DNA from: a virus
Direction: 5' to 3' (one strand)
DNA length: 64,000 nt
Virus record (IMG/VR): IMGVR_UViG_3300009130_000011
Coordinates: 1 to 64,000 of that record
How positions within the stretch are numbered: position 1 is the first letter of the stretch; every line of letters starts with the position of its first letter. Shown here one piece after another: positions 15,529-29,413 of this stretch. The position numbers and the translations under genes were made by a program. The notes under the pieces are model-generated. The model had not been told where the DNA came from and searched no databases. It worked only from the letters and a program-made list of their open reading frames with translations.

Positions 15529-15545
15529 TTGGCACGACATCTGAA
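15529..15545 (+). promoter_or_regulatory. sigma54-like -24/-12 motif
   Basis: TTGGCACGACATCTGAA, 28 bp before element 1. Confidence 0.55.
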
Positions 15546-15556
15546 CGGCCCTTTCA

Positions 15557-15623
15557 TAAGTCGTTGACTATCAGCCGGTTAGCCGGCGCAGGGCGGCGTA
15601 AGTCCTTCATTGCCAATGACTTA
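15557..15623. repeat. 67-bp palindromic element, copy 1
   Basis: TAAGTCGTTGACTATCAGCCGGTTA-GCCGGCGCAGGGCGGCG-TAAGTCCTTCATTGCCAATGACTTA. Confidence 0.9.
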
Positions 15624-15695
15624 CAACATACAAAAAAACGAAAAAAAAATAACTTTTTTCTTGCAATTCCACGAAAAATTCTTTAAGTTTATAGT

Positions 15696-15893
15696 ATGTT
15701 AAACAAGAAAATACAAGTAAGAATCCAAGAGTGGTCAACTCATTGGGCAGTTAAAATCTTTGACACAGGAACGGACTACCCTCGTGTTCGGACTGCGTCA
15801 AGCCTTTCCCACCTTCGCACCATAAAGCAAGAGGAAAAGCTTAACTCTCCACGCTTTCAAGTTGTAATGCAACGCAGGCATTTTAATGCTTGA
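15696..15893 (+). CDS. hypothetical early protein
   Basis: 65 aa, leaderless promoter at 15661. Confidence 0.7.
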   Translation: MLNKKIQVRIQEWSTHWAVKIFDTGTDYPRVRTASSLSHLRTIKQEEKLNSPRFQVVMQRRHFNA

Positions 15894-15924
15894 CTTTTAT
15901 AAAAAAATCCTTTAGTTTATACTT

Positions 15925-16179
15925 ATGAATTACTCAAACAGAAATGTCCCAACTCGGAGAGTCGAGTTTCAGAATGTAACGATGGAGCTTACCAAAAGAT
16001 TCCAAGATGACCCTAGCGTGGTCAAGACCCAACGCTTGCGGTTTTCTGCTGACCTAGACCAAGAGCTAGACAATGCCTTCCTAAAGTCTCACGCAGAGAG
16101 TGTTTTCAAGTTTTGGGACATCCTAGATGTCGAGCTTGTCCACTCCTTCGTTGACTCAACCGATCAATACATATACTAA
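15925..16179 (+). CDS. hypothetical early protein
   Basis: 84 aa, leaderless promoter at 15890. Confidence 0.7.
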   Translation: MNYSNRNVPTRRVEFQNVTMELTKRFQDDPSVVKTQRLRFSADLDQELDNAFLKSHAESVFKFWDILDVELVHSFVDSTDQYIY

Positions 16180-16180
16180 G

Positions 16181-16357
16181 ATGATAACAATAAAACAAAA
16201 CCCTAACTTCACCAAGTTCTTCCAAGTCTTTGCCTTTGGGCAGTACATCGACGAGGTCGAGCGTCGCAGTAAAGCCTTGCGTATAGCTACCAAGCTCGCC
16301 AAGCAACACAAGCAAGACTTTATAAATGTTGACGGCTTGATGCAAGAAGTGTCCTAA
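16181..16357 (+). CDS. hypothetical early protein, paralog of 21163..21348
   Basis: MITIKQNPNFTKFFQVFAFGQYIDEV; its stop TAA is the first 3 nt of element 2. Confidence 0.75.
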   Translation: MITIKQNPNFTKFFQVFAFGQYIDEVERRSKALRIATKLAKQHKQDFINVDGLMQEVS

Positions 16358-16421
16358 GTCGTTGATAATCAGGGCCTTAGGCCGCCCTGCGCCGGCTAAC
16401 CGGCTGATAATCAAGGACTTA
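16355..16421. repeat. 67-bp palindromic element, copy 2
   Basis: TAAGTCGTTGATAATCAGGGCCTTA-GGCCGCCCTGCGCCGGC-TAACCGGCTGATAATCAAGGACTTA. Confidence 0.9.
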
Positions 16422-16432
16422 CGAAACCGGCG

Positions 16433-16449
16433 TTCACATAGCGTGCCAA
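16433..16449 (-). promoter_or_regulatory. sigma54-like -24/-12 motif
   Basis: reverse complement TTGGCACGCTATGTGAA, 28 bp from element 2. Confidence 0.55.
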
Positions 16450-16566
16450 CTTAATAGCTTGCGGCAAGTATAAGCCCGGGTGTAATAAGCTATAAGCTAA
16501 GCTAAAAAGAAGCTAATAGTAAAAAAAAATCTTGTAAATATGCGTTTTATGTGCTACCTTATAGGT

Positions 16567-16758
16567 ATGAATGATAAAGATAAGAAAGTAAACGGCTTCA
16601 TCGCCAAAGTTAACATCGTCGACCGCAAGTCGGGCGACATCATCGCACGGAATCAAATCCTCAAGTGTGAGCATCACACCACCATTGATGCCTTGAATCG
16701 TGACCTCGCCAAGTTTGGCTTGCCACGCAAGTTTGAGTTTGTCGATTGGATTGCATAA
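16567..16758 (+). CDS. hypothetical early protein
   Basis: start MNDKD set by the promoter at 16532. Confidence 0.7.
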   Translation: MNDKDKKVNGFIAKVNIVDRKSGDIIARNQILKCEHHTTIDALNRDLAKFGLPRKFEFVDWIA

Positions 16759-16800
16759 AAAAAGCTTGCAATAAAACTTTAAATCCTTAGTCTTATACAT

Positions 16801-17034
16801 ATGAATATAATTGAACAAACCCGCAAAGAATGCAACCGCGAGCTTGACCTCGGTCTTGCTCTTTCCAAAGCTGAGGGAAATCTGAATTTCCTCGCAGGAC
16901 AATCCCACGAGAATAAGCTCGGACTAAATGCCATAACTCAAGACATGGCAATCCTTGACGCCCTTAATGCGGTACAAATCGCCCGCAAAGCTTTTCAAGA
17001 AATACTTTCAGAAAAGCGAAAAAAAAGCTTGTAA
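16801..17034 (+). CDS. hypothetical early protein
   Basis: 77 aa, promoter at 16766. Confidence 0.7.
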   Translation: MNIIEQTRKECNRELDLGLALSKAEGNLNFLAGQSHENKLGLNAITQDMAILDALNAVQIARKAFQEILSEKRKKSL

Positions 17035-17063
17035 TAAACTAAAAAATCCTTACTCTTATACTT

Positions 17064-17264
17064 ATGGAAAATACTGATTCACTCGACCGCACCGCCCACG
17101 CCTTCGGCATGACCGATCTCGAATTTGAGGAACGCTCTCAAGTCGAGGCTGAGATTGCCGCCCAACAAGTCATCCGTAGATGGCAAGAAGAGGAGCAGAT
17201 CCTCAGAGAGTCCTTTGAAGCTCTCAGCCTCTTTGACGAAGAGGAAAACCCCCATCTCTTCTGA
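17064..17264 (+). CDS. acidic early protein; N-terminus shared with 19849..20073
   Basis: DSLDRTAHAFGMTDLEF. Confidence 0.7.
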   Translation: MENTDSLDRTAHAFGMTDLEFEERSQVEAEIAAQQVIRRWQEEEQILRESFEALSLFDEEENPHLF

Positions 17265-17268
17265 CGGG

Positions 17269-17285
17269 TTGGCACGCTTCTTGAA
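17269..17285 (+). promoter_or_regulatory. sigma54-like -24/-12 motif
   Basis: TTGGCACGCTTCTTGAA, 28 bp before element 3. Confidence 0.6.
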
Positions 17286-17296
17286 CGGCCCTTTTA

Positions 17297-17363
17297 TAAG
17301 TCGTTCATAATCAAGGGCTTAGGCCGCCCTGAGCGAGCTAAGTAGCTGATAGCCAAGGACTTA
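17297..17363. repeat. 67-bp palindromic element, copy 3
   Basis: TAAGTCGTTCATAATCAAGGGCTTA-GGCCGCCCTGAGCGAGC-TAAGTAGCTGATAGCCAAGGACTTA. Confidence 0.9.
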
Positions 17364-17424
17364 CGACGCAAAAAAAGTTAAAAAAGTTCTTGACTTTTCG
17401 GGGTTGCTGTGCTATGTTATAGGT

Positions 17425-17483
17425 ATGATTAAGAAAATCCCAAACTAAGAGCCGTAGAATGGCGGGACGTGGCTCCCCGCAGA
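17425..17483 (+). ncRNA. micro-ORF (MIKKIPN*) plus pseudoknot unit, copy A
   Basis: own sigma70 promoter at 17390; GAGCC/GGCTC and GCGGG/CCCGC interleaved helices. Confidence 0.6.
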
Positions 17484-17544
17484 TCACCAAAAAAAACTTA
17501 AAATAATCCTTGACTTTTAGCCCAAACTCCGTTAACTTATAAGT

Positions 17545-17663
17545 ATGAAAATGAAAATCCCCAACTAAGCGCCGTATAAGTCGGGACGTGGCGCCCCGAA
17601 GATTATGAAAATGAAAACCCCCAACTAAGAGCCGTAGAACGGCGGGACGTGGCTCCCCGCAGA
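17545..17663 (+). ncRNA. micro-ORF plus pseudoknot units, copies B (MKMKIPN*) and C (MKMKTPN*), tandem with a 60-nt period
   Basis: promoter at 17510; copy B shows compensatory changes GCGCC/GGCGC and TCGGG/CCCGA. Confidence 0.6.
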
Positions 17664-17669
17664 GTTTGG

Positions 17670-17736
17670 TAACCCTCTTATAATCAAGGACTTACGCCGC
17701 CCCTGTCCGCGTAAGCGGTTGAATACCAAAGACTTA
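17670..17736. repeat. 67-bp palindromic element, copy 4
   Basis: TAACCCTCTTATAATCAAGGACTTA-CGCCGCCCCTGTCCGCG-TAAGCGGTTGAATACCAAAGACTTA. Confidence 0.88.
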
Positions 17737-17747
17737 TGAAACATAAG

Positions 17748-17764
17748 TACAGAAATCATGCCAA
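17748..17764 (-). promoter_or_regulatory. sigma54-like -24/-12 motif
   Basis: reverse complement TTGGCATGATTTCTGTA, 28 bp from element 4. Confidence 0.5.
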
Positions 17765-17842
17765 TTCATGCGATAGGATAGTGCAAAAAATTAGTTGAAA
17801 GTTTTTCTTGACTTTTGGCGTTTTTTGGGTTATGTTGTAGAC

Positions 17843-17938
17843 ATGAAATTAACTGAAAGAGAAAAAATCCTCCTCGCAATCGTCCTTCCTAAAAAGGAAA
17901 AAAAAGCAAAAAAAAGTTTGCAATTCCGCCAAAACTAG
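17843..17938 (+). CDS. 31-aa leaderless small protein (MKLTEREKILLAIVLPKK...)
   Basis: TTGACT at 17808, ATG 35 nt later; below the ORF-track cutoff. Confidence 0.5.
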   Translation: MKLTEREKILLAIVLPKKEKKAKKSLQFRQN

Positions 17939-17984
17939 TTTAGCTTATATACATACAACAAAGATAACCTAACTCAAAAAAATT

Positions 17985-18173
17985 ATGACCAAGTCCGAAA
18001 TGCTCAAAGAAATCTCCATCCTCCACGAAACGCTGAAAGATTGCGTTCTCACCATCGCTGACCGCGTTGCGATCCGCAACGAGATCGGTGACCTGCAGGA
18101 CAGGGTCGCCCTCCTCGACTTCCAAAACGAAGGCGAGGACTTCGACTTCGGTCATCACTCCGAATGGGAGTAA
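17985..18173 (+). CDS. hypothetical early protein
   Basis: 62 aa, promoter at 17918. Confidence 0.7.
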   Translation: MTKSEMLKEISILHETLKDCVLTIADRVAIRNEIGDLQDRVALLDFQNEGEDFDFGHHSEWE

Positions 18174-18223
18174 AAAGCAAAAAAAAGTTTGCAATCACCT
18201 AAAAAATCGTTTAAATTATACTC

Positions 18224-18445
18224 ATGAATAAAGCAGAATTAAATCAAAAATTCGAGCTTCTCAATCGAGAAGTAAATGCCCTTTGGGATTCTTCAAAGTC
18301 TTTGCAAGATCAATCTGCCGAGTACAGCCAAGCTTGGCAAGCTCGTTTCGAGGTTTCTCGTGAACTTCGCAACTTTCGGGAGCTTGGCGGTTCTCGCTCT
18401 CGTTGCCATGATATGGCTTTTAAGATCCGCGAGCAAAACGCTTAA
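18224..18445 (+). CDS. hypothetical early protein
   Basis: 73 aa, promoter at 18189. Confidence 0.7.
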   Translation: MNKAELNQKFELLNREVNALWDSSKSLQDQSAEYSQAWQARFEVSRELRNFRELGGSRSRCHDMAFKIREQNA

Positions 18446-18471
18446 AGTCTAACCTCAACAGAAAGGAAAAT

Positions 18472-18624
18472 ATGTTCATCCTCAAATCTATTCTCAACCA
18501 AGCGGGCGCCGTTTGGAAAGTTGAAAGCATCGCAATGCGCGAGCGTGACGCAAGGCGTCTCCTCCGTAGGCGTCAAGCACAAAATGACGGCAGTCGCCGT
18601 TACGGGCTTTTCCCTGCCAAGTAA
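18472..18624 (+). CDS. 50-aa small protein (MFILKSILNQAGAVWKVES...)
   Basis: GAAAGGA SD; below the ORF-track cutoff. Confidence 0.6.
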   Translation: MFILKSILNQAGAVWKVESIAMRERDARRLLRRRQAQNDGSRRYGLFPAK

Positions 18625-18641
18625 TTGGCACGCTTCTTGAA
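18625..18641 (+). promoter_or_regulatory. sigma54-like -24/-12 motif
   Basis: TTGGCACGCTTCTTGAA, 28 bp before element 5. Confidence 0.6.
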
Positions 18642-18652
18642 CGGCTGTTTCA

Positions 18653-18719
18653 TAAGTCGTTGACTGTCAGGCGGTTAGGCCGACAGGGGCGGCGTAAGTC
18701 ATTGATAGTGTGACACTTA
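18653..18719. repeat. 67-bp palindromic element, copy 5
   Basis: TAAGTCGTTGACTGTCAGGCGGTTA-GGCCGACAGGGGCGGCG-TAAGTCATTGATAGTGTGACACTTA. Confidence 0.88.
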
Positions 18720-18798
18720 CGACACGCAAGAGAATAGTGTAAGAAAATAGTTGAAAGTTTTTCTTGACTTTTCGCATTTTTTGGCTTATGTTATAGGC

Positions 18799-18906
18799 AT
18801 GAAAGTTAAAGTGAGAAAGACAATCCTTATGCCCAAAAGCATTCCGCACAAGCGGAAAAACAAAGTCTTGCCACGCAAGGCAAAGCACAAGGGAATTGTG
18901 CAATAA
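18799..18906 (+). CDS. 35-aa basic peptide with an ArfA-like RKxKH motif
   Basis: MKVKVRKTILMPKSIPHKRKNKVLPRKAKHKGIVQ; promoter at 18764; paralog at 25918..26037. Confidence 0.6.
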   Translation: MKVKVRKTILMPKSIPHKRKNKVLPRKAKHKGIVQ

Positions 18907-18959
18907 AATAGTTGAACATTTTTCTTGCAATTTTACAAAAAATCCTTTATATTCTTAAT

Positions 18960-19103
18960 ATGAAAACAAAAGAACAACTTCTTAAAGACCTTGCCTTTTG
19001 GCAGGATAAGGTCAATCGTTCACGCAAGGAGTCTCTCCGCTCCATCAGAGTTCTGCACCTTCAGCATGTGCAGGATGAACTCAAGAAACTTCAAGAAAGT
19101 TAA
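18960..19103 (+). CDS. hypothetical early protein
   Basis: start MKTKEQ set by the promoter at 18925. Confidence 0.65.
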   Translation: MKTKEQLLKDLAFWQDKVNRSRKESLRSIRVLHLQHVQDELKKLQES

Positions 19104-19149
19104 GTTTCGGGGTTGACTTTATCGCTACAAACTGACAAAATATAATCTT

Positions 19150-19341
19150 ATGAAAATCACTAACGGAAAACTATACTTCTCAAAATCTAACGCTTGTGTT
19201 GTCCGAGTCTTGCGGGCAGACCAAACCCAAAAGGTTGCAACGCTGAAGCATCACGCTTCTGATATGGTGGAATCCGAGGTCTTGTTTAAGGACTTGACTC
19301 CCGCCACTTCCGAGCAAGTAAAATCCTACTTGGGCAAATAA
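19150..19341 (+). CDS. hypothetical early protein
   Basis: 63 aa, promoter at 19114. Confidence 0.7.
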   Translation: MKITNGKLYFSKSNACVVRVLRADQTQKVATLKHHASDMVESEVLFKDLTPATSEQVKSYLGK

Positions 19342-19410
19342 GATGATTGAAATGATTCTTATAATCGCCTTCGCTCTAGTAATCCCAACGCTTGCAAAAG
19401 CGAACGCACA

Positions 19411-19671
19411 ATGAGCGAAGCAGAAGTTGCACGATACAACGAAACACTTGCAGATCTCTCTCAAAGCATTGATCTGGGTTGGAAAAAGTTTTGGCAAGAG
19501 CGAGGAATAAACGCGGCTCTTGCTTGTAAGGATATAAATACGGGCGGACCTTGGTACTCCCGAGGCTATGGCGAGCAGGACGCCACAGGCGTTTTCGCCC
19601 ACATGCTAGAACCCGCCGAGCTTATCACCCGAGCAGTCACCCGCAAGAAAACCTTAAAGCAGTTTCATTAA
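19411..19671 (+). CDS. hypothetical early protein
   Basis: 86 aa; stop overlaps element 6. Confidence 0.65.
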   Translation: MSEAEVARYNETLADLSQSIDLGWKKFWQERGINAALACKDINTGGPWYSRGYGEQDATGVFAHMLEPAELITRAVTRKKTLKQFH

Positions 19672-19734
19672 TCCTTGATAATCAAGGGTTTACGCCGCCC
19701 TGAGCGACATAAGTCGTTGAACACCAAGACCTTA
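19668..19734. repeat. 67-bp palindromic element, copy 6
   Basis: TTAATCCTTGATAATCAAGGGTTTA-CGCCGCCCTGAGCGACA-TAAGTCGTTGAACACCAAGACCTTA. Confidence 0.88.
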
Positions 19735-19848
19735 CGGAAACATAGTTAAAATCAAAATTCTGCCCGGGGTAGTTATTTGGTATTGTATTTGTTAAAATTT
19801 GTTTAAAAATCTCTTGACTTTTCCCCGTTTCCCCCTTATGTTGTTCTT

Positions 19849-20073
19849 ATGATTAACGAAAACGATTCCCTCGCCCGCACCGCCCACGCCTTCGGCATGA
19901 CTGATGTCGAATTTACCGCCCGCCACGGGTTCGCCCCCGTGGACGATCTCCCGCTCCCGCCTCCTCCTGCGGGCTTCACGGTCTCGCCCAGCGGAGCCAT
20001 CCGCGAGGCTAGCCCCGAGGAACTCAGCGACTGGGTCGCTGAGGATATCCTCAACGGAGAGTTTGACGACTAG
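19849..20073 (+). CDS. acidic early protein; N-terminus shared with 17064..17264
   Basis: DSLARTAHAFGMTDVEF; promoter at 19814. Confidence 0.7.
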   Translation: MINENDSLARTAHAFGMTDVEFTARHGFAPVDDLPLPPPPAGFTVSPSGAIREASPEELSDWVAEDILNGEFDD

Positions 20074-20077
20074 GCCC

Positions 20078-20144
20078 TAAGTCGTTGACAATCAAAGGGT
20101 TAGCCCGCCCTGAGCGGCGTAAGTAGCTAATGATCAACGACTTA
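20078..20144. repeat. 67-bp palindromic element, copy 7
   Basis: TAAGTCGTTGACAATCAAAGGGTTA-GCCCGCCCTGAGCGGCG-TAAGTAGCTAATGATCAACGACTTA. Confidence 0.9.
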
Positions 20145-20201
20145 CAAAAAGTATTGTTCTGTCGCCCGCCCGCCCGCAAAATTGTTATTTAGCTATTTGC
20201 G

Positions 20202-20243
20202 AAAAACCCCCCATCCGCCTTTCCGAAGGGCGAATGAGGGGCT
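20202..20243 (-). terminator. hairpin terminator where the + and - early blocks converge
   Basis: CCCCCCATCCGCCTTTCCGAAGGGCGAATGAGGGG stem with a T-tract on the minus strand. Confidence 0.6.
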
Positions 20244-20355
20244 TCAATAACTAATAACCTAACCAATAATAACTAACCACTAAAAATTTTCATTGCAATG
20301 CCACATAAAAGCGAAAGCTAAAGCCCACGGCAAGAAAATAAAAAGATCTGCCCAC

Positions 20356-20607
20356 TCACCCATTGCCCAAGATTCCTTCAACAACGGGTTTTGCCACAAG
20401 GTTTCTGATGGCAACACCATCTCCGTACTGACTACCCCTAACGGCAGACTTGAACTTGCGAGTGCTATACTCATAAAAAGCATTGACCACTACGCCCGCC
20501 TTGTTGACATAAGAGAAACAAAGCTTGTCCCCTTGCTTGTTTACATTTTGCGGTTGGTACTTTGCCACCGCATTAGCTTTTTCTATGAATGAGAATTCTG
20601 ATTGCAT
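20356..20607 (-). CDS. hypothetical early protein
   Basis: 83 aa, AGGAGG SD. Confidence 0.7.
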   Translation of the reverse strand: MQSEFSFIEKANAVAKYQPQNVNKQGDKLCFSYVNKAGVVVNAFYEYSTRKFKSAVRGSQYGDGVAIRNLVAKPVVEGILGNG

Positions 20608-20621
20608 AATATGTTTCCTCC

Positions 20622-20909
20622 TTAGTTGTTGTTGTTGTAAACTTCACGCATCTCGGAGCTTACTCCGAAAGATTCGTCTTCCTCGTCAATGTCTTCAGCA
20701 GAGTCGCTGAACAAAAACTGAGACTCGTCCTCCAAGTCTTCTTTTTGACTATCGAGCAAACCATGCTCGACAACCAATTCTTCGGTCTTCACATCCTCGA
20801 CAAACTCTTGGGCTTGATCGCTAAGTGCGACTCCCTTGGCTTGCTCGAAAGCTTGACGGATGATCTCGATGCGTTCTTCTTGAGTGAGTTGTTCTTGTGT
20901 TAATTCCAT
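20622..20909 (-). CDS. highly acidic early protein
   Basis: 95 aa D/E-rich; TTGACT-17-TATATT promoter, leaderless. Confidence 0.7.
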   Translation of the reverse strand: MELTQEQLTQEERIEIIRQAFEQAKGVALSDQAQEFVEDVKTEELVVEHGLLDSQKEDLEDESQFLFSDSAEDIDEEDESFGVSSEMREVYNNNN

Positions 20910-20924
20910 AGTGTTTAATATAGT

Positions 20925-21122
20925 TTAGTTTGAGAATAAAGTCAAGCTTTCGTTTTCTAATTGTATGCGAATATATGGCTCAGAATATTCGTCTGTGTCC
21001 ATGTCTGCATAATTACAATCAACAAAATCGGAAACTTCGTTTACTCCGTTGTTGTTTTCTGATTCATTAACTACGAATGAGCAAATGTCATTTCCAAAGT
21101 AATCTTCAATTTTTATCTTCAT
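20925..21122 (-). CDS. hypothetical early protein
   Basis: 65 aa, leaderless promoter. Confidence 0.65.
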   Translation of the reverse strand: MKIKIEDYFGNDICSFVVNESENNNGVNEVSDFVDCNYADMDTDEYSEPYIRIQLENESLTLFSN

Positions 21123-21162
21123 GTGTTTAATATAGTTTAGTTGTGATCAGTAGTCAAGCCCA

Positions 21163-21348
21163 TTAGGCATTTTCTTGAACTTTTTTTACTTCGCCAAAAG
21201 CGTGAATGTGGGCGACTCCGTTTTGTTTTGCAATGGTCTTTGCTAGACGCAATGCCTTTGCGTTACTTTGCACCTCGTCAATTAAATTACCGAAGGCGAA
21301 GACTTGAATCCACTTGGGAAAGTTAGCGTTTTTCTTAATAGTTATCAT
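21163..21348 (-). CDS. hypothetical early protein, paralog of 16181..16357
   Basis: MITIKKNANFPKWIQVFAFGNLIDEV. Confidence 0.75.
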   Translation of the reverse strand: MITIKKNANFPKWIQVFAFGNLIDEVQSNAKALRLAKTIAKQNGVAHIHAFGEVKKVQENA

Positions 21349-21452
21349 ACATAAGATACTAAGGACTTTTGAGTAAACCACAACAAAAAAAAATGTAAAA
21401 TAATCACTTTATCCGCCCGCTTATATCCTTCATAAGTTTCTCTAATAATACG

Positions 21453-21519
21453 TAAGTCTTTGTCTTTCAATGACTTGCGCCGCCCAGAGCGCCCTAAGTG
21501 CCTGAGTATCAATGACTTA
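21453..21519. repeat. 67-bp palindromic element, copy 8
   Basis: TAAGTCTTTGTCTTTCAATGACTTG-CGCCGCCCAGAGCGCCC-TAAGTGCCTGAGTATCAATGACTTA. Confidence 0.9.
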
Positions 21520-21681
21520 GTAGCCTAACCAAACCAAAACCTCTTGTGCTTCATACTCTTCCCTGTCTCCCAAGTCATCAAAGAATTGCTCGATATCTTC
21601 GCAATGATGCCTTGCCAATTCAAGCAAAGCTCTTTCTCTCGTTATAGTTAAACCTTCGGCTGAATCGTAATAGTCCATCAT
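21517..21681 (-). CDS. 54-aa protein (MMDYYDSAEGLTITRERA...WLGY)
   Basis: overlaps the stop of the GP88-like gene; its own stop lies in the last 3 nt of element 8. Confidence 0.65.
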   Translation of the reverse strand: MMDYYDSAEGLTITRERALLELARHHCEDIEQFFDDLGDREEYEAQEVLVWLGY

Positions 21682-22394
21682 GAATTTATACCTTCTTTAA
21701 CGAATCCTGTCAAATCTTTTTTGGCAAGACCTTTTTCGATAAGCCCGACGACCACGCCTTGCTTGTCAAGAAATCGCAAGTCCGATTCGTCGCCATTGAT
21801 AACCTCGACACCATTCCAAGTTTCAGGTAATTGGTTACGAAAGACAACGGCAACATTACCGCCCATTTCCAAAACTAGCTTGGCGATCTTTTCATTCGTT
21901 TCGGAGCATGAAAAAGTCAAGTGGTAGTTGCTTGGCAACTCGCCATTGAGAAAGCGTTGCATCCTCTTAAATGACTTGGTATAATCATAAAATTGAGTCT
22001 TGCCGTGCTTTTCAAAGAGGGTTACCCCATCTTCGTTTATAATGTTTTCCCATGCAATATCGCTTGTAAGGTTAGGACGGAAAACCGCTTGCAAACCTTT
22101 CTTGCTTGCCGACTTAATAGTTGAAGTAATTTCCTTTGATAGCTTGGCAAGGAAATCGAACCTTTGCTCGAAAAAGAGCTTAGTCTTTGCAATTCGTGAA
22201 TCTTGAACAGAATTCATTTGCCCACGACCTGCCGTATTCAAACAAGCCATGGTGCAACCTTTGGAACGCCATTGGCAAACTTCATAACCCGACAAATTAG
22301 CGGGAGCTAAGTGGATGCCTTTAGTTAAATATCCGAACGCCTCGCCTTTTGTGATCTTGGCGTTCCCTGCGGTGAGTAGAGTTGTTTTAATCAT
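21678..22394 (-). CDS. GP88-like phage protein
   Basis: C..RSKGC...CL, RPNLTSDIAWE, QFYDYTK, NYHLTFS, GDESDLRFLD. Confidence 0.7.
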   Translation of the reverse strand: MIKTTLLTAGNAKITKGEAFGYLTKGIHLAPANLSGYEVCQWRSKGCTMACLNTAGRGQMNSVQDSRIAKTKLFFEQRFDFLAKLSKEITSTIKSASKKGLQAVFRPNLTSDIAWENIINEDGVTLFEKHGKTQFYDYTKSFKRMQRFLNGELPSNYHLTFSCSETNEKIAKLVLEMGGNVAVVFRNQLPETWNGVEVINGDESDLRFLDKQGVVVGLIEKGLAKKDLTGFVKEGINS

Positions 22395-22421
22395 AATAGA
22401 ATACTAATTGAATTAGTTTGA

Positions 22422-22622
22422 CTATGCAAGCCTAAAAATAAAATCTTCAAAGTAATCGGGTTCAAGCCCGAACTCACTCATAAAGGTATGCTCCCATTCG
22501 GAAAGGTCGCCGCCGGCTTCCCAATCAGCTTTCATTTCGTTGAAGAATTGGATAACTTGCTTGACCGCCTCGGCTTGCGTTAAGCCGTCGCGGGACATTA
22601 GGACTTTTACTGTTTCTTTCAT
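22422..22622 (-). CDS. hypothetical early protein
   Basis: VLMSRDGLT...FGLEPDY; start MKETVK set by promoter spacing. Confidence 0.7.
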   Translation of the reverse strand: MKETVKVLMSRDGLTQAEAVKQVIQFFNEMKADWEAGGDLSEWEHTFMSEFGLEPDYFEDFIFRLA

Positions 22623-22687
22623 TCCTATATACTGACAGATTCTCAGTAAAACACAAGAAAAAAATTGCAACTAAGTGAAAATAGTTG

Positions 22688-22754
22688 TAAGTCCTTGAAT
22701 ACCAACGCTTTCCGGCGCCCAGAGCGACGCAAGTCGCTGATTGTCAACGACTTA
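22688..22754. repeat. 67-bp palindromic element, copy 9
   Basis: TAAGTCCTTGAATACCAACGCTTTC-CGGCGCCCAGAGCGACG-CAAGTCGCTGATTGTCAACGACTTA. Confidence 0.88.
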
Positions 22755-22982
22755 GTCGTCTTCTCTTAGCTCATCGAAATACTCTTCGAGCCTTGGGAGG
22801 TCAAGACTGCTGTCGTTGTAAGCTACCCTGTCGGGAGTCTCGGTATAGCCCACCTCTCGCATTTGCTCAACAAAGTTTGCGTAAGTTCCGCACTCTTTGG
22901 CGAAACTATACATTCCCTCGTCGTTGCCGATCCAAAGAGCGATATTCCAAGTTTCTCTGTTTTTCCATCCGTTGTAGCTCAT
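22752..22982 (-). CDS. hypothetical phage protein (YNGWKNRETWNIALW)
   Basis: 76 aa; stop lies in element 9. Confidence 0.75.
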   Translation of the reverse strand: MSYNGWKNRETWNIALWIGNDEGMYSFAKECGTYANFVEQMREVGYTETPDRVAYNDSSLDLPRLEEYFDELREDD

Positions 22983-23272
22983 GAGTTTGCCTTTCCAATT
23001 GTGTAGGGTGAATGTTGGGTGAACTTGTCGATGTGAGATTCAAGCTGTCTTATGATCCAAACTGCACGCTCGATGGAGCAAGGATCAAAGCCTTCCATGG
23101 GTTGTCCGTTTTTTAATATAATATACATATCTTATAGGTTCTCCGTGTTATGTCCTGCTCTCCTCATTGAGTGCAAGGCTTCTTGCTTTGTCATGTTGAA
23201 TCGGGACATGAGATACATGAGCAAGTCATGCCCTGTGAGTTGTTGGTTTCGATCTGTCATGGTAGTATTCTC

Positions 23273-23710
23273 TCAGTATTGGTCTAAGTTGTCAAGACCT
23301 AATTCTTTGTTATGTTGTTGTCTTGCGTCAGTAAGAAGGCAGACCCAAGCGAAGTCGTTAAGATGTGCTTGATGCATTAGCTTAGTGATCTGCGTGGGAG
23401 TTTGCCACGCAAGAACATCATCACCAATAGACAAGGGAAGCATGGTGTCTCTACCATCATACCACATTGCGACCTCGTAAGTGTTGTCTGAATGGTCGCC
23501 ATACAATCCAGTACCATCTGCAATGTTTTGCACGGCTGAGATGGTGAATTGATTCCTTGAACCAAAATCAAGCATGGCTTGAATAGCTTTGCCATCGGCA
23601 AATCCCGCGTGAGACTTGAAAACTAAATCATCAAACCCCTTGAGGTTGCTCCTTGGGGCAGAGGCTTGATAATCTGAAATGTAGTTTGGTATATCGTAGT
23701 TAATAATCAT
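23273..23710 (-). CDS. hypothetical protein
   Basis: 145 aa, leaderless promoter. Confidence 0.7.
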   Translation of the reverse strand: MIINYDIPNYISDYQASAPRSNLKGFDDLVFKSHAGFADGKAIQAMLDFGSRNQFTISAVQNIADGTGLYGDHSDNTYEVAMWYDGRDTMLPLSIGDDVLAWQTPTQITKLMHQAHLNDFAWVCLLTDARQQHNKELGLDNLDQY

Positions 23711-23787
23711 AAATAGATACTAAGCCCGTTTTGTCTTAATTGCAAGAAAAAAGATGCTAAATCGCAAAAAAGGTTTGCTTAATGCTG

Positions 23788-23854
23788 TAAGTCATTGTCT
23801 GGCAAGGACTTGTGCCGCTCAGGGCGGCATAAACCCTTGAGTCGCAAAGGCTTA
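23788..23854. repeat. 67-bp palindromic element, copy 10
   Basis: TAAGTCATTGTCTGGCAAGGACTTG-TGCCGCTCAGGGCGGCA-TAAACCCTTGAGTCGCAAAGGCTTA. Confidence 0.9.
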
Positions 23855-23859
23855 TGAAA

Positions 23860-24066
23860 TTAGAACTTCAATGCCTTTAGGCTCGTGTTGTTCTTTAGCC
23901 ACCTGCGAAGCGGGTGAAATGCTTTGGCAGACATATGAGCCAAGTATTGCTCTCCGTTCTTTGCCATGATCATATACCCATTTGCAGTTGCCCGAATCTC
24001 CTGAATATCGGGGCATTTCTTTATTTGCTTTAGAACTTTGCGATTACCGCTCTCTGAATGTTTCAT
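23860..24066 (-). CDS. small basic protein
   Basis: 68 aa, TTGACA promoter. Confidence 0.65.
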   Translation of the reverse strand: MKHSESGNRKVLKQIKKCPDIQEIRATANGYMIMAKNGEQYLAHMSAKAFHPLRRWLKNNTSLKALKF

Positions 24067-24374
24067 GATATAAATCTAAACAATTTTTTATTGATTGTCA
24101 ACCACTAAGCCCAAGAAAATGAACTATTGCGATGGCAATCATGATGATTAAGAATGCTAGTGAGAATGTTTGTTGTTGCGTCATAATAAAGTGAATTGAG
24201 AGCCACGGAGCCGCCCGTGGTAAATGCTACCCCGTCTTACCGAGGATGTGACACTAGGTGCCTATAAGGCTTGGTACTGCACTCTCAAAATTGTGAACCT
24301 TTTTCTCTCTCCCGAAGGTTGTAGGCGTGTGCTGACGCCTCGTTGTTCAATGCTTTCGCATCTACAGAAAAAGC

Positions 24375-24491
24375 AGCCCTCTGTGAGATTCGAACTCACC
24401 TCTTTGACTCTAAAACGATGATCGGTCGCTCGCAGGCTTAACTAGTATACTGCCGAGAGCCATTGTTTTCACCAATGTAAACTAAGAGGGC
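24375..24491 (-). ncRNA. tRNA-like RNA with a 44-nt insertion in the anticodon loop
   Basis: acceptor GCCCTCT/AGAGGGC, D-arm GTTT..TGG..AAAC, stem TGGCTCT/AGAGTCA, T-arm GTGAG-TTCGAAT-CTCAC; sigma70 promoter upstream. Confidence 0.7.
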
Positions 24492-24574
24492 ACAAATGAA
24501 ATTGATTATCAAAAGAACTAAATACAATTGTGACAGAATACCGAGCGAAGTCAATACTTTTTTTCTTTTTGTCA

Positions 24575-24641
24575 TAAGTGTCTGTTAATCAATGGTTTGC
24601 GCCGCTCAGAGCGCCATAAGCCCTTGACCATCAATGACTTA
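24575..24641. repeat. 67-bp palindromic element, copy 11
   Basis: TAAGTGTCTGTTAATCAATGGTTTG-CGCCGCTCAGAGCGCCA-TAAGCCCTTGACCATCAATGACTTA. Confidence 0.88.
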
Positions 24642-24660
24642 CAGAAAGTAAATGCCCAAT

Positions 24661-24689
24661 AAAAAAGCCCCCTCGGGGTGAGGGGGCTT
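24661..24689 (-). terminator. Rho-independent terminator after the DUF932-like gene
   Basis: AAAAAAGCCCCCTC-GGGGT-GAGGGGGCTT. Confidence 0.85.
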
Positions 24690-24714
24690 ATTTGCCTATT
24701 TGGCGACTGACCCT

Positions 24715-25644
24715 TTAGAAGGGGTAGTCATCCTCTGCATCATATAGATCGGCAGGAACTTCGCCATCTATGTTTCCTGCTACCTCAAGAACTTGAGGGG
24801 CAGGGGCATGAGCAACTTCGACAAGTTCAGCTTCCTCGACTTGAGAATCGAAAGCTGAAAGATCGAAACCGACCTCAGAGTCAAGAACAGAGTGCAATGC
24901 CTCAGAGCGTTGAGGCAAGGCAACAAGATTGCCCTTGTATACCTCGGTAAAGGCATTATAAAGGGAGTTCATGTTTCTGTCCCAAAACTCGGTGTGGTCA
25001 GACTTTTCCCATTGGTCAACCACATCAGCAATCTTAGTCTTGCTGACTGCACCTGCTTTGTAGGCACGAATCACAAGATCGTTGACTTGAGCGTTGGTCA
25101 AATCAAAATCCTTGTAGGATACGATGCGTTGATCTTGACCCATCCAAAAATTGAACAACTTGCCCAAAGTGCGAGAGATCACATGATCTAGCTCGGAAAG
25201 GATGTTCTTAGTGTGCCTGCGAGCCAACTTGACCGAATTGGTAAAGATGAGGTTGTCGCAAACAAATGGAGCGTCACCTGCACACAATCCTGCAGGGAAG
25301 CACTTGTCGTGAGCATTACGCAATCCAACGATTGTGCCTCTCTCGGTGTTTTCCCTGTTTGGGTGAGTGACCTCAAACAATCCAAAGTAGCGTTTGCCAC
25401 CTCTTGCGAGGTTGTGGCACTCGTCTACAACTTCAAACCCACCTTGCTCAAGATGGTTACGAGTCTTGTCAATCAAGAGATTGTGCGAAATAGGCTGATA
25501 AGAAACGGAGTGCGTTCCGTCCTTGTTCGCCTCTTTGCGATACTCGATATCGGGAGTCACTACATCAGCGACTTCCCCTAGCGTTACTACCTTATGCTCG
25601 CCTCCGCAGATGGCGAGATTAATTTTGTTTTTCGTGTTAGACAT
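24715..25644 (-). CDS. DUF932-family protein
   Basis: YQPISH, GKRYFGL, GLRNAHDK, FVCDNL, RRHT, SLYNAFTE. Confidence 0.7.
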   Translation of the reverse strand: MSNTKNKINLAICGGEHKVVTLGEVADVVTPDIEYRKEANKDGTHSVSYQPISHNLLIDKTRNHLEQGGFEVVDECHNLARGGKRYFGLFEVTHPNRENTERGTIVGLRNAHDKCFPAGLCAGDAPFVCDNLIFTNSVKLARRHTKNILSELDHVISRTLGKLFNFWMGQDQRIVSYKDFDLTNAQVNDLVIRAYKAGAVSKTKIADVVDQWEKSDHTEFWDRNMNSLYNAFTEVYKGNLVALPQRSEALHSVLDSEVGFDLSAFDSQVEEAELVEVAHAPAPQVLEVAGNIDGEVPADLYDAEDDYPF

Positions 25645-25682
25645 GATTATATTCTCTCAGTTTTTTTGTTAATTGTCAAGGG

Positions 25683-25928
25683 TTAATTTCTGTAAAAGTC
25701 TTGTGTGGTATCTTCTGACATCAACTTTTCGTAAAGTGATGCTTGTTCCGAAACGATCTTGAAGCTTATGCCGATAAGGCTAATCATTGCTAAGTCTTCC
25801 TCGTTGAGCTTGCCCATTTCATTCATGGGGTTGATGAGCTTCTCGAATATGAAATCCATACCCGAAGACATTACCTCTTCTGCTTGGGGGCATTCAAATT
25901 CGTTTGTGAAATCTTCATTAATATTCAT
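25683..25928 (-). CDS. hypothetical protein
   Basis: 81 aa. Confidence 0.6.
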   Translation of the reverse strand: MNINEDFTNEFECPQAEEVMSSGMDFIFEKLINPMNEMGKLNEEDLAMISLIGISFKIVSEQASLYEKLMSEDTTQDFYRN

Positions 25929-26037
25929 AGCGTTTTTTATGTTTGAGTTTTCTGTCTAAGGTTTTGTTCTTCATCTTGAAGGGGCGAGCCTTAGTGAAAA
26001 GGATCGGCTTTCTAATCTTAATTTCCCTTGCTTTCAT
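25918..26037 (-). CDS. 39-aa basic peptide with an ArfA-like motif, paralog of 18799..18906
   Basis: MKAREIKIRKPILFTKARPFKMKNKTLDRKLKHKKRYEY; leaderless promoter. Confidence 0.6.
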   Translation of the reverse strand: MKAREIKIRKPILFTKARPFKMKNKTLDRKLKHKKRYEY

Positions 26038-26142
26038 AATATATATTCTGACAGATTTTGAGTAAACCGCAAGAAAAAAAAAGTTTTTAAGTGAAGTTTT
26101 TTTTGTCGCTTATAGCTAGAATAAGCTGAGCTTATGATTCCG

Positions 26143-26209
26143 TAAGTCGTTGGGTCGCAAGGACTTACGCCGCCCAGAGCGCCCTAACTCGTTGGTATGG
26201 AGCGACTTA
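26143..26209. repeat. 67-bp palindromic element, copy 12
   Basis: TAAGTCGTTGGGTCGCAAGGACTTA-CGCCGCCCAGAGCGCCC-TAACTCGTTGGTATGGAGCGACTTA. Confidence 0.9.
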
Positions 26210-26539
26210 TGCCATCGCGTTGTGCATAGATTCGTAGAAACCTTTGTCTGCCGTCCCATCGTCTTTGCGAACTTGAAGCTCCTCCGTTTCAGCAGGGAAG
26301 ACATGGCAAGGTTCGTCAGCACCATTTTGCTTAATGTACCAAGCGGGTGGATCGAAAGGTTGAACAAGCATTCCAATGAAGCCATACTCCACAAAATACT
26401 TCAAAACTTTTGATCGACCAATGCCATTGATCTTTACATTAACTTCTGATCCTACAGCAGGTATGGGTTGATCTGATCCCCATGCTAGTTTCTCAAACTC
26501 GGTGTAGGAGTTTACGGGTTGTTCGATTTTTTCGTGCAT
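26207..26539 (-). CDS. hypothetical protein
   Basis: 110 aa; stop lies in element 12. Confidence 0.7.
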   Translation of the reverse strand: MHEKIEQPVNSYTEFEKLAWGSDQPIPAVGSEVNVKINGIGRSKVLKYFVEYGFIGMLVQPFDPPAWYIKQNGADEPCHVFPAETEELQVRKDDGTADKGFYESMHNAMA

Positions 26540-26570
26540 AATAGTATTCTCTCAGTTTTTGTTGTGATTG

Positions 26571-26792
26571 TCAATTACAAAATGGATCGGGTTTCCCAAG
26601 AGTATAATCCCATGAGATAGTTGGGTCGCAGTCTAGCATCTCTAATACTTTCTGCCAAGTTTCAGCTACCTGCGTAGTAAATTCACTCTCTCCCATTTCG
26701 GGGTAGACATGACTTATGTCGTTTGGATCGTAGACATTAAGGACATCAAAGATTACCTCAAGGTCGGCTCGGTTTAGGCTAACTTTATCCAT
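26571..26792 (-). CDS. hypothetical protein
   Basis: start MDKV chosen from the overlap with the upstream gene. Confidence 0.55.
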   Translation of the reverse strand: MDKVSLNRADLEVIFDVLNVYDPNDISHVYPEMGESEFTTQVAETWQKVLEMLDCDPTISWDYTLGKPDPFCN

Positions 26793-26967
26793 TTTGCTTT
26801 GCTTCTTCATTTTTAACTTTGCTAAGTTGGTCAATAGTCTTCGCAAGAAATATAAGTTCTTCCCTTGCAGTCCTCTTCCCCTCAAATGAGGCGTTTTCGT
26901 TTTCGAGAACCGCAATGTAAATCTTTACTGCGGATTCCCAAGTCGGAGTCATATCAATCGTTTTCAT
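26785..26967 (-). CDS. hypothetical protein (IDMTPTW)
   Basis: 60 aa, leaderless promoter. Confidence 0.65.
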   Translation of the reverse strand: MKTIDMTPTWESAVKIYIAVLENENASFEGKRTAREELIFLAKTIDQLSKVKNEEAKQNG

Positions 26968-27007
26968 AGTATAAATCTTAAAAAATTTTCGTTAAGTTGT
27001 CAAGCGT

Positions 27008-27427
27008 TTACCACCAAGAAGAGTAAAATACTTTCTTGCCTTGTGCTATGGCTTTGTACGCATCAGATATAAACTGCAAGTCAGTTTCCTTGTAATAGTA
27101 ATCACCATCTTCGTAGGGCGTTCCATCCTCCTTCTCCCAAGAGTAAGAATCACTACCAAAGAAGAAACCGCCTGTTTCGGGCATATGCTTTTGATTGATA
27201 ACTGCCTCAAGTTGCTCAAGGTCAGTAAGCGTTAGCTCGACAGGAACACAATTAAATTCTCCCATGCCCCCGCTATCTAAATCATCTAAATTACCTTCGT
27301 ATGGTCTGCCCTTGTCCTCCCAAAGTTGCTCCATGTATCCTTGGAGGCGGTTGTGCTTTCTCCAATCAACGAGATGCTCGGTTTCTCCGTTCTTGTCTTT
27401 TGCGTATGCGTATTGATCTAGTCCCAT
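27008..27427 (-). CDS. hypothetical phage protein (MGLDQY...WRKHN...GFFFG...YSSWW)
   Basis: 139 aa, AGGAG SD. Confidence 0.75.
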   Translation of the reverse strand: MGLDQYAYAKDKNGETEHLVDWRKHNRLQGYMEQLWEDKGRPYEGNLDDLDSGGMGEFNCVPVELTLTDLEQLEAVINQKHMPETGGFFFGSDSYSWEKEDGTPYEDGDYYYKETDLQFISDAYKAIAQGKKVFYSSWW

Positions 27428-27523
27428 GATTTTCTCCTTATGTTTAAGTTAATTTGTATATATGAGTATGACAGGTCATAAGTAAAACGCAAGAAAAAAA
27501 ATCAAATAAAGTTAAAATAGTCA

Positions 27524-27590
27524 TAACCCGTTAGCTATCAAGCACTTACGCCGCTCAGGGCGACGCAAGCCGCTGATAGTCAACGACTTG
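27524..27590. repeat. 67-bp palindromic element, copy 13
   Basis: TAACCCGTTAGCTATCAAGCACTTA-CGCCGCTCAGGGCGACG-CAAGCCGCTGATAGTCAACGACTTG. Confidence 0.88.
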
Positions 27591-27641
27591 CGAAGTTTCT
27601 CATTAACCCTACAACACGAACATACTCAAAGGCTTATTTGG

Positions 27642-27875
27642 TTAGGCTCTATTTAGTGATACGATTCTATCATATCGAAAAGAGCGAATGCCATTCTTGT
27701 TATGGCAGTATGCCCTGAAGCCCGCAGTAACAAGCTTCTCACTTACATTGCCAAACTCATTGACATGCAAAGGCTTCTCAATGGTGTACATTTCGGTGCG
27801 TCCATCCTTAGTGGTATAGACCAAGCTATACAATGGGTTGAACATTCTTTTAATTTTATTAATTATCTTCTTCAT
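27642..27875 (-). CDS. small WYL/Sm-like fold protein (putative)
   Basis: FRAYCHNKNGIRSFRYDRI resembles the WYL-domain RxFRxDRI motif. Confidence 0.45.
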   Translation of the reverse strand: MKKIINKIKRMFNPLYSLVYTTKDGRTEMYTIEKPLHVNEFGNVSEKLVTAGFRAYCHNKNGIRSFRYDRIVSLNRA

Positions 27876-29291
27876 TTGTATTATCCTCCGTTATTGGGTT
27901 TGCGTTATAAAAATTGTAAACATCACACGCTTCTTGAGAGTTATCACATGTCACGCCTATGACATCCCTTGGCTCTTCAATGGGACTCCAAGGTGTCTCC
28001 GACTCTTCAAAATATACTGCCCACAATTCTGCGTCTTCATCATATTCGGGAAGACCAAGAGGTTTGCCGACACATACTGCTTCTACATGTTTATTCATAA
28101 ATCCCACTCTCCCGCTTTTACATTGTCAATATCTTGCATCGCCTTATCATAGGCGGTGCTTTCGCTAGTGTCTTGAATCTCGTCATCGTATAGTTCAAGT
28201 ATATCATTTGCATACTGAATGTTAAAATTTTCTTCTTTAACTAATCGTTCTAGTTCTGTTTTTAATTGTTTTCTCATAGTGCTAGTCTCGTAAGTTTTGG
28301 TTCGTAGTTATGAAGGGTTACTCCGAAGTGAGATGCAAGCTCGGCAATCAAATCGTTGTAGTGCCAAGTGTCGTAGGCATGATTAAGCAAGGCTTCTTGT
28401 TCGTCTGCGGTGTGACCATCTCTAAGTTCGTCATAAATCTCGAATATGTTCATGTTGCCATCCCACATATTCACTTGCCATTCGATGTCTGCTTTATCCA
28501 TTTTTAACCTCCTTGATAATTTTTTCCATTTGTTCTAAGACGGACTTCTTGTTACCTTTTAATCCGTACTCGGCTTTTACGATTGAATATGCTGATTGAC
28601 CTCTTCTGCTCATTCCAAGGCACTCCAACTTGAGAGCGGATCTGAGACTGAGGAATCGAAACATATCGATTTGTTCGGGTGTGTCTAATGTAATCATGGT
28701 TAAAATACTATTGAATTAATGCGTCTGTGTCAACACTTTTCTCATTGTTTTTCTTTAATTCCCAACTAATATCATAGAGGTACTGACTGATGAAGTCGAG
28801 CGATCCCGCTATGTTTTTTAATTGAAACAAAGTTTCATCGTTGTTCTTTCTCATCTCGTAGAGTTCGTCTGCAATTCCATTGATTGCTACGACATCTTCG
28901 GATAGTTCGTGTCCTCTTTTAAGGATCTGCTTTGCTTTTTCCATAGTCTTATTCATTTGACATTTCCTCCTCGTCTAGTACTTTTTGTTTTAGCTCCTCT
29001 AGCAATTCAAAGGTTGAGTACCAAGGATCTGTCTTGTCTACCTCACCCTCCATTTCACTATATAAAATATAATCTTTAACTTCCTCAATACATTGGGAAA
29101 CAGGAATCTTAATCCTAAGCATTCTCATTTTGCTCCTCCTCTTCTCTGACTTTCATTAATAGCACGGCAAGCGTGGCAAATGTTTCTCCCCAAGGACTAT
29201 CGTCATTAGTCGCTCCAAGGCGTTGTAGTTTCATCATCACTTGTTCAACGGCAAGTGAGAGATGGTATTCGTTGTCTTGTTCAATCTTCAT
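27859..29291 (-). other. run of small overlapping hypothetical genes (27859..28107, 28095..28277, 28274..28501, 28494..28697, 28708..28956, 29115..29291)
   Basis: co-oriented, tightly packed ORFs with internal TTGAC promoters. Confidence 0.65.
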
Positions 29292-29346
29292 ACCTATTAG
29301 TTTGACAGATTCTTGGGTTAAGTCAACACCTTTTTTCAAATAAACG

Positions 29347-29413
29347 TAACTTACTGAATACCAACAACTTGCGCCGCCCAGAGCGCCGTAACCCCTTGAC
29401 CTTCAGTGACTTA
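29347..29413. repeat. 67-bp palindromic element, copy 14
   Basis: TAACTTACTGAATACCAACAACTTG-CGCCGCCCAGAGCGCCG-TAACCCCTTGACCTTCAGTGACTTA. Confidence 0.85.

Follow-up and report, generated by a model that had tools for sequence, protein, structure and literature searches.

What is a 67-bp sequence doing that a phage repeats again and again between its early genes, and which protein, if any, reads it? The question is raised by the window, the 64,000-nucleotide stretch of DNA that we analyzed, which comprises bases 1–64000 of a 102,754-bp uncultured virus record (G000) rated 76% complete. The record contains a terminase gene and a PhoH-like gene. No DNA similarity to cultured phages was found for it, and its large terminase is only ~25% identical to Bacillus phage terminases. 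An initial annotation had described an element at 16355–16421 and had read each of its two arms as a pair of back-to-back sites for the DNA-bending protein IHF. The element is indeed real: it is composed of a 25-bp arm (16355–16379), a 17-bp GC-rich core (16380–16396), and a second 25-bp arm (16397–16421). Arm 1 is an imperfect palindrome with its half-sites mirrored about a central A. Its half-site 16355–16367 matches the IHF core exactly on the minus strand, and its TAA (16355) is at the same time the stop codon of the ORF 16127–16357. Arm 2 contains AATCAAGGACTTA at 16409–16421, which is, just as had been claimed, an exact match to the E. coli IHF core WATCAANNNNTTR.

Fourteen ungapped 67-bp copies were found, all within 15557–29413 and all intergenic among early genes; a weight matrix of the arm scores 28 hits in the window and does not find a single arm after shuffling. 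The rest of the 102,754-bp record yielded no further copy at ≤3 mismatches, and a reversed control pattern also gave zero hits. The region around them, ~14.9–30 kb, holds many small ORFs, on the plus strand up to 20.1 kb and on the minus strand beyond, and most of these lie directly 3' of a TTGACT-N17-TAnnnT-N6-ATG promoter. Altogether ~35 sigma70-type promoters are present on both strands between 14.9 and 30 kb; the predicted transcript start is at or adjoining the ATG, and the early genes are therefore apparently largely leaderless. Copy 1 (15557–15623) shows the arm-core-arm order over 67 bp and has an orthologue in the close relative G001. The focal element is copy 2, while copies 3 (17297–17363), 4 (17670–17736), and 5 (18653–18719) fall in stretches of the window that are missing from G001. 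Copy 6 (19668–19734) overlaps the stop codon of the ORF 19411–19671, and copy 7 (20078–20144) marks the point where the plus- and minus-strand early genes converge. Further on, the last TTA of copy 8 (21453–21519) is the stop codon of the minus-strand ORF 21517–21681, and copies 9 (22688–22754) and 12 (26143–26209) overlap the stop codons of the minus-strand ORFs 22752–22982 and 26207–26539. Copy 11 (24575–24641) follows a strong canonical terminator (24689–24665, minus strand), and copies 10 (23788–23854), 13 (27524–27590), and 14 (29347–29413) display the arm-core-arm anatomy. The cores point one way along the genome in ten of the 14 copies when judged by eye, a count too small to carry meaning.

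Two other features of this part of the genome deserve mention. Just downstream of copy 11 and of a promoter-like site (24554–24527), Rfam gives a tRNA match at 24375–24491 on the minus strand (38.6 bits, full model, 117 nt) that is missing from the ARAGORN output; a tRNA gene interrupted by an insertion or an intron could account for it. Additionally, a 780-aa protein (35476–37818, minus strand) carries a GHKL-type ATPase domain (HATPase_c_3) and could, from this domain, be a DNA-topology or MORC-like enzyme.

The elements are found 3' of gene ends, with the five that start at 16355, 19668, 21453, 22688, and 26143 overlapping the upstream stop codon, and they precede the leaderless sigma70-type early promoters, although only every second or third promoter has one. 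The distance of the nearest arm centre to the downstream start, computed by hand from the coordinates, ranges from -68 to -158 without phasing, which argues against a classical IHF-assisted promoter. A scan for intrinsic terminators called none of the 14 elements. Its sole strong call in 16 kb was 24689–24665, before the element at 24575, and a T-run is missing from 13 of the 14 cores.

Some copies are accompanied by a flank motif, TTGGCACG-N5-TGAAC, at 15529–15547 (plus strand, the TGGCAC starting 27 nt before element 1), 16431–16449 (minus strand, beside the focal element), 17269–17287 (plus strand, before element 3), and 18625–18643 (plus strand, before element 5). As TTGGCACG-N5-TG(A/T)AC, it keeps a fixed distance of 27 nt and points into the element in the window phage, in G001, and in the relatives L068 and L069, despite their differing core lengths. 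In L079 and L080, TGGCAC is instead located inside the core and adjoins a terminator hairpin. The motif resembles the -24 box of a sigma54 promoter, for which we took GG at -24, GC at -12, and ten bases between as the criterion; at the -12 place, however, G000, G001, L068, and L069 have TGA or TGT, not TGC. A sigma54 promoter combined with an IHF site was consequently rejected: the motif is directed towards the inside of the element, has no GC at -12, and in L079 and L080 is located within the core beside the terminator.

How close do the arms come to an IHF site? Compared with the IHF core, the 56 half-sites of the window comprise 10 exact matches, 23 with one mismatch, 18 with two, and 5 with three or four. 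The proposed count of up to four sites per element and about 56 in the region is thus an overcount, as WATCAANNNNTTR is present exactly in only 10 of the 56. Exact matches number 15 in the whole window, compared with 8.0 ± 3.1 after shuffling, and 10 of them are inside elements. The consensus of the 56 half-sites reads T-A-A-G-T-C-n-T-T-G-A-t-w. Its information peaks at T-A-A and T-T-G (1.1–2.0 bits), the following A, T, and W reach 0.7, 0.3, and 0.4 bits, and three of the four positions written as N in the IHF core (G-T-C) carry 0.8–0.9 bits within the window genome. The best-conserved positions named by the initial annotation, T/C-A-A and T-T-G-(A) together with their mirror images, could be confirmed, including the terminal T/C (A/G) variation that TTR allows.

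We then turned to a family sample of 304 half-sites from 76 distinct elements of the phage and its relatives. Constrained are Y1 (T 231, C 70), A2, A3, Y8 (T 223, C 76), T9, G10, and A11. On the opposite strand, Y1 A2 A3 and Y8 T9 G10 A11 read TCAR-N4-TTR, and both purine degeneracies are present. Conservation does not extend to the W-A of WATCAR, where positions 12 and 13 carry 0.2 bits. Full-core exact matches occur in 50 of the 304 half-sites, and TCAR-N4-TTR is conserved in all four half-site classes. The description of the arm as an IHF consensus mirrored about a central W is thus supported for TCAR-N4-TTR, in both halves of every arm. With an IHF-like core on both sides of the dyad, the arms have two-fold symmetry and in this depart from the asymmetric site that is typical of E. 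coli IHF. Other binding sites with some likeness were set aside. The Fur-box sequence TGATAATCA is confined to a few arms, those that have TAA at the centre by chance, and the FNR/CRP-type site is TTGAT-N4-ATCAA, compared with which the arm centre, TTGA-N3-TCAA, is 3 bp too short.

The G-T-C bias at N4, which amounts to 0.5–0.9 bits within genomes across the 56- and 304-half-site sets, needs attention here, because conservation of the N positions as strong as that of the consensus positions had been named as a sign of a different binder. The comparison with G001, in which 11 elements have orthologues, separates the two by evolutionary rate. Orthologous copies are 95.1% identical at the consensus positions and 93.6% identical in the core, compared with 84.5% in the 30-nt flanks, 83.5% at the N4 positions, and 71.2% at the central three bases of the arm. 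N4 evolves like the flanks and is therefore free of constraint, as it is in an IHF site, and the IHF reading survives with 83.5% at N4 vs 95.1% at the consensus. The bias within each genome is best explained, as far as these alignments tell, by common descent of the copies.

The geometry of known complexes suggests how many proteins an arm would hold. When IHF is bound to H', 6 bp separate the T of TTR from the closest kink, and the two kinks of HU and IHF are ~9 bp apart (PMC5829579). With TTR at 43–45, published structure data place the kink between the last two WATCAR bases. Transferred to the mirrored arm, the kinks would fall at steps 8/9 and 17/18, again 9 bp apart and with the shared W on the dyad. 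Mirrored cores with this kink distance overlap the footprint of a single dimer, so that each arm should take up at most one dimer. This would give two dimers per element and 28 putative sites in the region, not 56, and would make the arm what a symmetrised IHF site is expected to look like. That both halves carry the core fits a homodimer. The inner blocks TTGA and TCAA, ~7 bp apart from centre to centre, appear unsuited to a helix-turn-helix dimer in successive major grooves.

We next consider how the element is built in related phages. A 309-aa DUF932 protein encoded at 24715–25644 (minus strand) led to 19 related viral loci at 46–99% identity, and most of these loci have the same arms with different cores. 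Core lengths across the relatives are 17, 20, 21, 23, 25, 28, and 35 bp, with unrelated sequences. The arm spacing is 42 bp in the window phage, in G001, and in L128, whose core is different and perfectly palindromic; it is 45 bp in L176 (one triple arm included), 46 bp in L077 and L084, 48 bp in L069, 50 bp in L068, 53 bp in L172, and 55 bp in L133. In L079 and L080 it reaches 60 bp, and the core there is a canonical two-way terminator of A-run, GC-hairpin, and T-run with TGGCAC before it. Spacing is constant in most lineages; in L070, L079, and L127 it varies by a few bases or more. Between lineages the spacings share no common helical phase. When the contig fragments were compared, L172, L176, L127, and L133 had no detectable protein in common with the window phage. 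Judged from these alignments, the arms are the universal part of the element, and the core differs in sequence and length from lineage to lineage but is nevertheless under constraint. That the same arms occur with differing cores, and also on contigs without detectable protein similarity to the window phage, fits a conserved trans-acting factor. L128 (CAZSAT010000176.1, 11.9 kb) is a related phage fragment with nine paired-arm elements and a DUF932 protein of 78% identity. It is binned in an 'uncultured Enterobacterales' MAG, which is probably a binning artefact, and L128 therefore gives no reliable host information.

Which host could supply such a factor? A DUF1501 auxiliary gene of the record (with a neighbouring 675-aa ORF; G000 86449–89759, beyond the window) finds its closest counterparts, at ~50% identity, in Verrucomicrobiaceae MAGs and then in Planctomycetota, a weak lead by which the host is possibly a member of the Verrucomicrobiota. 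The HU-family proteins of three Verrucomicrobiaceae genomes reach ~61 bits with the IHF-alpha model (cut-off 120 bits), and one of them is as close to solved HU chains as it is to solved IHF chains, so that they can be assigned to neither type. The host may thus be without true IHF, and the IHF consensus used here is that of E. coli. The arm palindrome was not found at ≤2 mismatches in the three candidate-host genomes. A phage-encoded HU or IHF, which the initial annotation had suggested looking for, was found neither in the window record nor in five records of relatives, of which two have a completeness rating of 100%.

Taken together, we favor a reading to which we give a probability of roughly 40%: the arm is a symmetric putative site for one host bending dimer of the HU/IHF type, and the element would be a boundary between early transcription units. 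Each 25-bp arm would be a two-fold symmetric, double-stranded site for one dimer of a DNA-bending protein, most likely a host protein of the HU/IHF family. TCAR-N4-TTR contacts, which E. coli IHF makes on one side of its site only, would be on offer in both halves of the arm. Two such sites, at a distance fixed in most lineages, would flank the lineage-specific GC-rich core and form a module between the end of the upstream gene and the next early promoter. This module would then most likely delimit strongly transcribed early units by blocking read-through, by hindering the spread of supercoils, or by both. A second factor may sit on the core, which is 93.6% conserved in close relatives and replaced in other lineages. 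Against a host bender that binds each arm independently stands the strictly fixed spacing of most lineages (42–60 bp classes), which would need further explanation.

This spacing also speaks for the reading that we regard as the most serious competitor, though still a tentative one. Here, a dimeric regulator of phage or host origin that does not belong to the HU/IHF family would use the arms as operators and bridge both arms and the core in a higher-order complex, for example as a stoperator-like roadblock that shuts off or gates early transcription; the IHF likeness would be coincidental. In most lineages the arm spacing is strictly fixed, but its value changes from one lineage to another, and this, together with a core that is conserved in close relatives and replaced in others, suggests a co-evolving phage factor. 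The absence of covariation fits a protein site of this kind too, the G-T-C bias at N4 is a further point in its favor, and the many small early ORFs of unknown function provide candidates. However, none of the 20 scanned ORFs of the region was found to have a DNA-binding domain, and the arms stay unchanged while cores and most proteins change, even on contigs without protein similarity. Moreover, the 7-bp offset of the inner blocks would be awkward for common dimeric folds, and N4 evolves like flanking DNA. Far less probable is the version of the initial annotation, in which every element would carry four IHF dimers, 56 over the whole region, and the array would serve to compact the entering DNA, to draw it in, or to keep IHF from sigma54 transcription or CRISPR adaptation of the host; we consider it very improbable, and no result speaks for any of these roles. 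IHF-core-like positions are indeed present in all four half-sites, and a sigma54-like -24 motif adjoins some copies. E. coli cells contain thousands of IHF dimers, against which 28 sites on one entering genome are few, and nothing shows that this region enters the cell first. The mirrored cores, with only 10 exact matches among them and kinks 9 bp apart, share one 25-bp stretch, and there is therefore no room for separate occupancy; a cognate IHF site spans ~35 bp (bioRxiv 10.1101/382655).

Most of the weight that remains after the HU/IHF reading and the other regulator goes to an RNA-level hairpin or to cassette exchange, and we judge each of them unlikely. The element might act as RNA or single-stranded DNA, as a long imperfect hairpin or as three hairpins, and serve as a two-way terminator, an RNase III-type site, or a 3' mRNA stabiliser, comparable to REP or to the RNase III sites of T7. 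Its palindromes are nested and lie at gene ends, the predicted fold of most copies is more stable than that of shuffled versions (z from -1 to -5), the cores of L079 and L080 are canonical terminators, and just one other canonical terminator exists in 16 kb. The pairing itself speaks against this idea, since the pairs that form are due to the conserved letters alone. In the long-hairpin model only 19–24 of 33 pairs form, with 3–10 mismatches that are neither wobble nor A-C pairs, and no covariation was found at the variable columns of the 14 copies. Across 76 elements, Watson-Crick pairing at variable positions showed no excess over within-locus shuffles, either within or between arms, apart from one excess at the arm ends (1/25, between arms, z 3.2), which arises because inner half-sites often start with C. 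In bacterial hairpins with the same palindrome, used as positive control, the free position was paired in 53% and the flanking pair in 50% vs ~25% by chance. G-U pairs have no preference for the transcribed strand, the local hairpin of the focal copy is broken without compensation in the G001 orthologue, Rfam gives no match to the elements, 13 of 14 cores are without a T-run, and a long hairpin would not need the self-symmetry of each arm. As no compensatory pairing is seen, the arms therefore behave as double-stranded protein sites and not as hairpins. The slightly less probable alternative is that the elements are mainly exchange joints, which serve cassette swapping by homologous recombination in the manner of PeSLs or are themselves mobile (MITE-like or attC-like). 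Small gene cassettes were indeed gained, lost, and reordered between 15.6 and 19.1 kb relative to G001, three elements (17297, 17670, and 18653) lie in the window-only stretches, the element ends are TAA...TTA, and PeSL terminator/promoter motifs play this role in T4-type phages (PMC4122927). Several of the cassette breakpoints are, however, in the repeated promoters and not in elements, and the tyrosine recombinase (PF00589) and Y1 transposase (PF01797) families are absent from the five records G000, G001, G005, G007, and G008 (60–100% complete). The copies are restricted to orderly intergenic places in one 14-kb region, and specific positions are under purifying selection, which calls for some role other than providing homology.

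The palindrome that served for the pairing control, YAAGTC-N-TTG-N5-CAA-N-GACTTR, has matches in >120 bacterial contigs (L086–L205). Planctomycetota (~27) and Gemmatimonadota (~15) are over-represented in a hand count of the record titles. The palindrome often stands directly beside tRNA or tmRNA genes and occurs in a repeat family of Treponema and Desulfovibrionaceae as well. We do not regard these bacterial copies as counterparts of the arms, since they are generic perfect hairpins with extra complementarity and without the TTGA/TCAA signature.

With a symmetric site for an HU/IHF-type dimer as the preferred reading, the closest known systems can be compared. The E. coli IHF site (WATCAR-N4-TTR, as in lambda H') shares with the arms the TCAR and TTR blocks, their 4-bp spacing, both purine degeneracies, implied kinks 9 bp apart, an A/T-rich site, and a flexible centre. 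The known site is, however, asymmetric, with the consensus in one half and often an A-tract in the other, and is bound by a heterodimer, whereas the phage arms carry the core in both halves, do not conserve the W-A, and stand in rigid pairs around a GC core, in a host that may lack true IHF. In the BIME-1/RIB/RIP elements of E. coli, which stand at the 3' ends of transcription units, a pair of inverted REPs encloses an IHF site; such elements have been proposed to terminate transcription, to stabilise mRNA, and to act as topological insulators (PMC3333891). They, too, are a dispersed extragenic mosaic of GC-rich palindromes and IHF-type sites at the ends of transcription units. In the phage the order is inverted, with two IHF-like sites flanking one GC palindrome, and the phage elements form 14 copies in 14 kb, without sequence similarity and without a detected REP-associated Y1 transposase. 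The PeSLs of T4-type phages combine a terminator stem-loop with a promoter in plastic early regions that undergo cassette swapping (PMC4122927, PMC2839356). Common to both are repeated composite motifs near the promoters of small early ORFs of unknown function, in places where close relatives have gained, lost, or exchanged cassettes; PeSLs, in contrast, have no rigidly spaced pairs of 25-bp protein-site palindromes, and many promoters of our phage are without an element. The phage elements thus belong to neither the BIME-1/RIB nor the PeSL family, and these two are their closest analogues.

More distant parallels exist. Stoperators of cluster A mycobacteriophages are 13-bp, asymmetric, orientation-dependent sites bound by a phage repressor. 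They resemble our elements as many dispersed intergenic protein sites over an early or lysogeny-controlled region that could block an elongating polymerase, and they differ from the arms, which are symmetric, paired, and 25 bp long and for which no repressor is known. Integron attC sites share an imperfect palindrome with conserved outer parts, a centre of variable length, and a location at the 3' end of gene cassettes. Yet attC is read as a folded single strand with conserved structure in the presence of an integrase, while the phage elements have neither covariation nor a tyrosine recombinase, and the genes have their own promoters. The injection-stop region of T5 consists of a single non-coding block of 1.6 kb whose basis is paired DnaA boxes (bioRxiv 10.1101/866236); we rejected this likeness, as the T5 region is not made of dispersed intergenic modules and the arms fit the DnaA box poorly. 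A search of the open-access full-text literature returned no description of such elements. In that literature, the paired-arm elements are so far undescribed, and they recur in many related phages.

In summary, a phage early region is punctuated by 14 elements whose two symmetric 25-bp arms are conserved where an IHF-type protein would make its contacts. It is possible, and no stronger wording is intended, that they represent a widespread class of phage cis-elements: two symmetrised HU/IHF-type sites at a lineage-fixed distance around a lineage-specific GC core, which is bound by a phage factor or forms a hairpin, would build a nucleoprotein boundary or switch that partitions the early region in many uncultured phages of non-model hosts. 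If the arms recruit a host bending protein, the phages would possess a compact and portable way to shape and insulate their earliest transcription units. The elements would then also offer an unusual way to approach the DNA-bending proteins of hosts that have been little studied, as the symmetric arm predicts the sequence preference of a homodimeric relative of IHF and HU, and the rigid, lineage-specific spacing and core would point to a second, co-evolving partner. Finally, the elements mark a plastic part of the genome in which relatives swap small early genes, and they may help to explain the diversification there.
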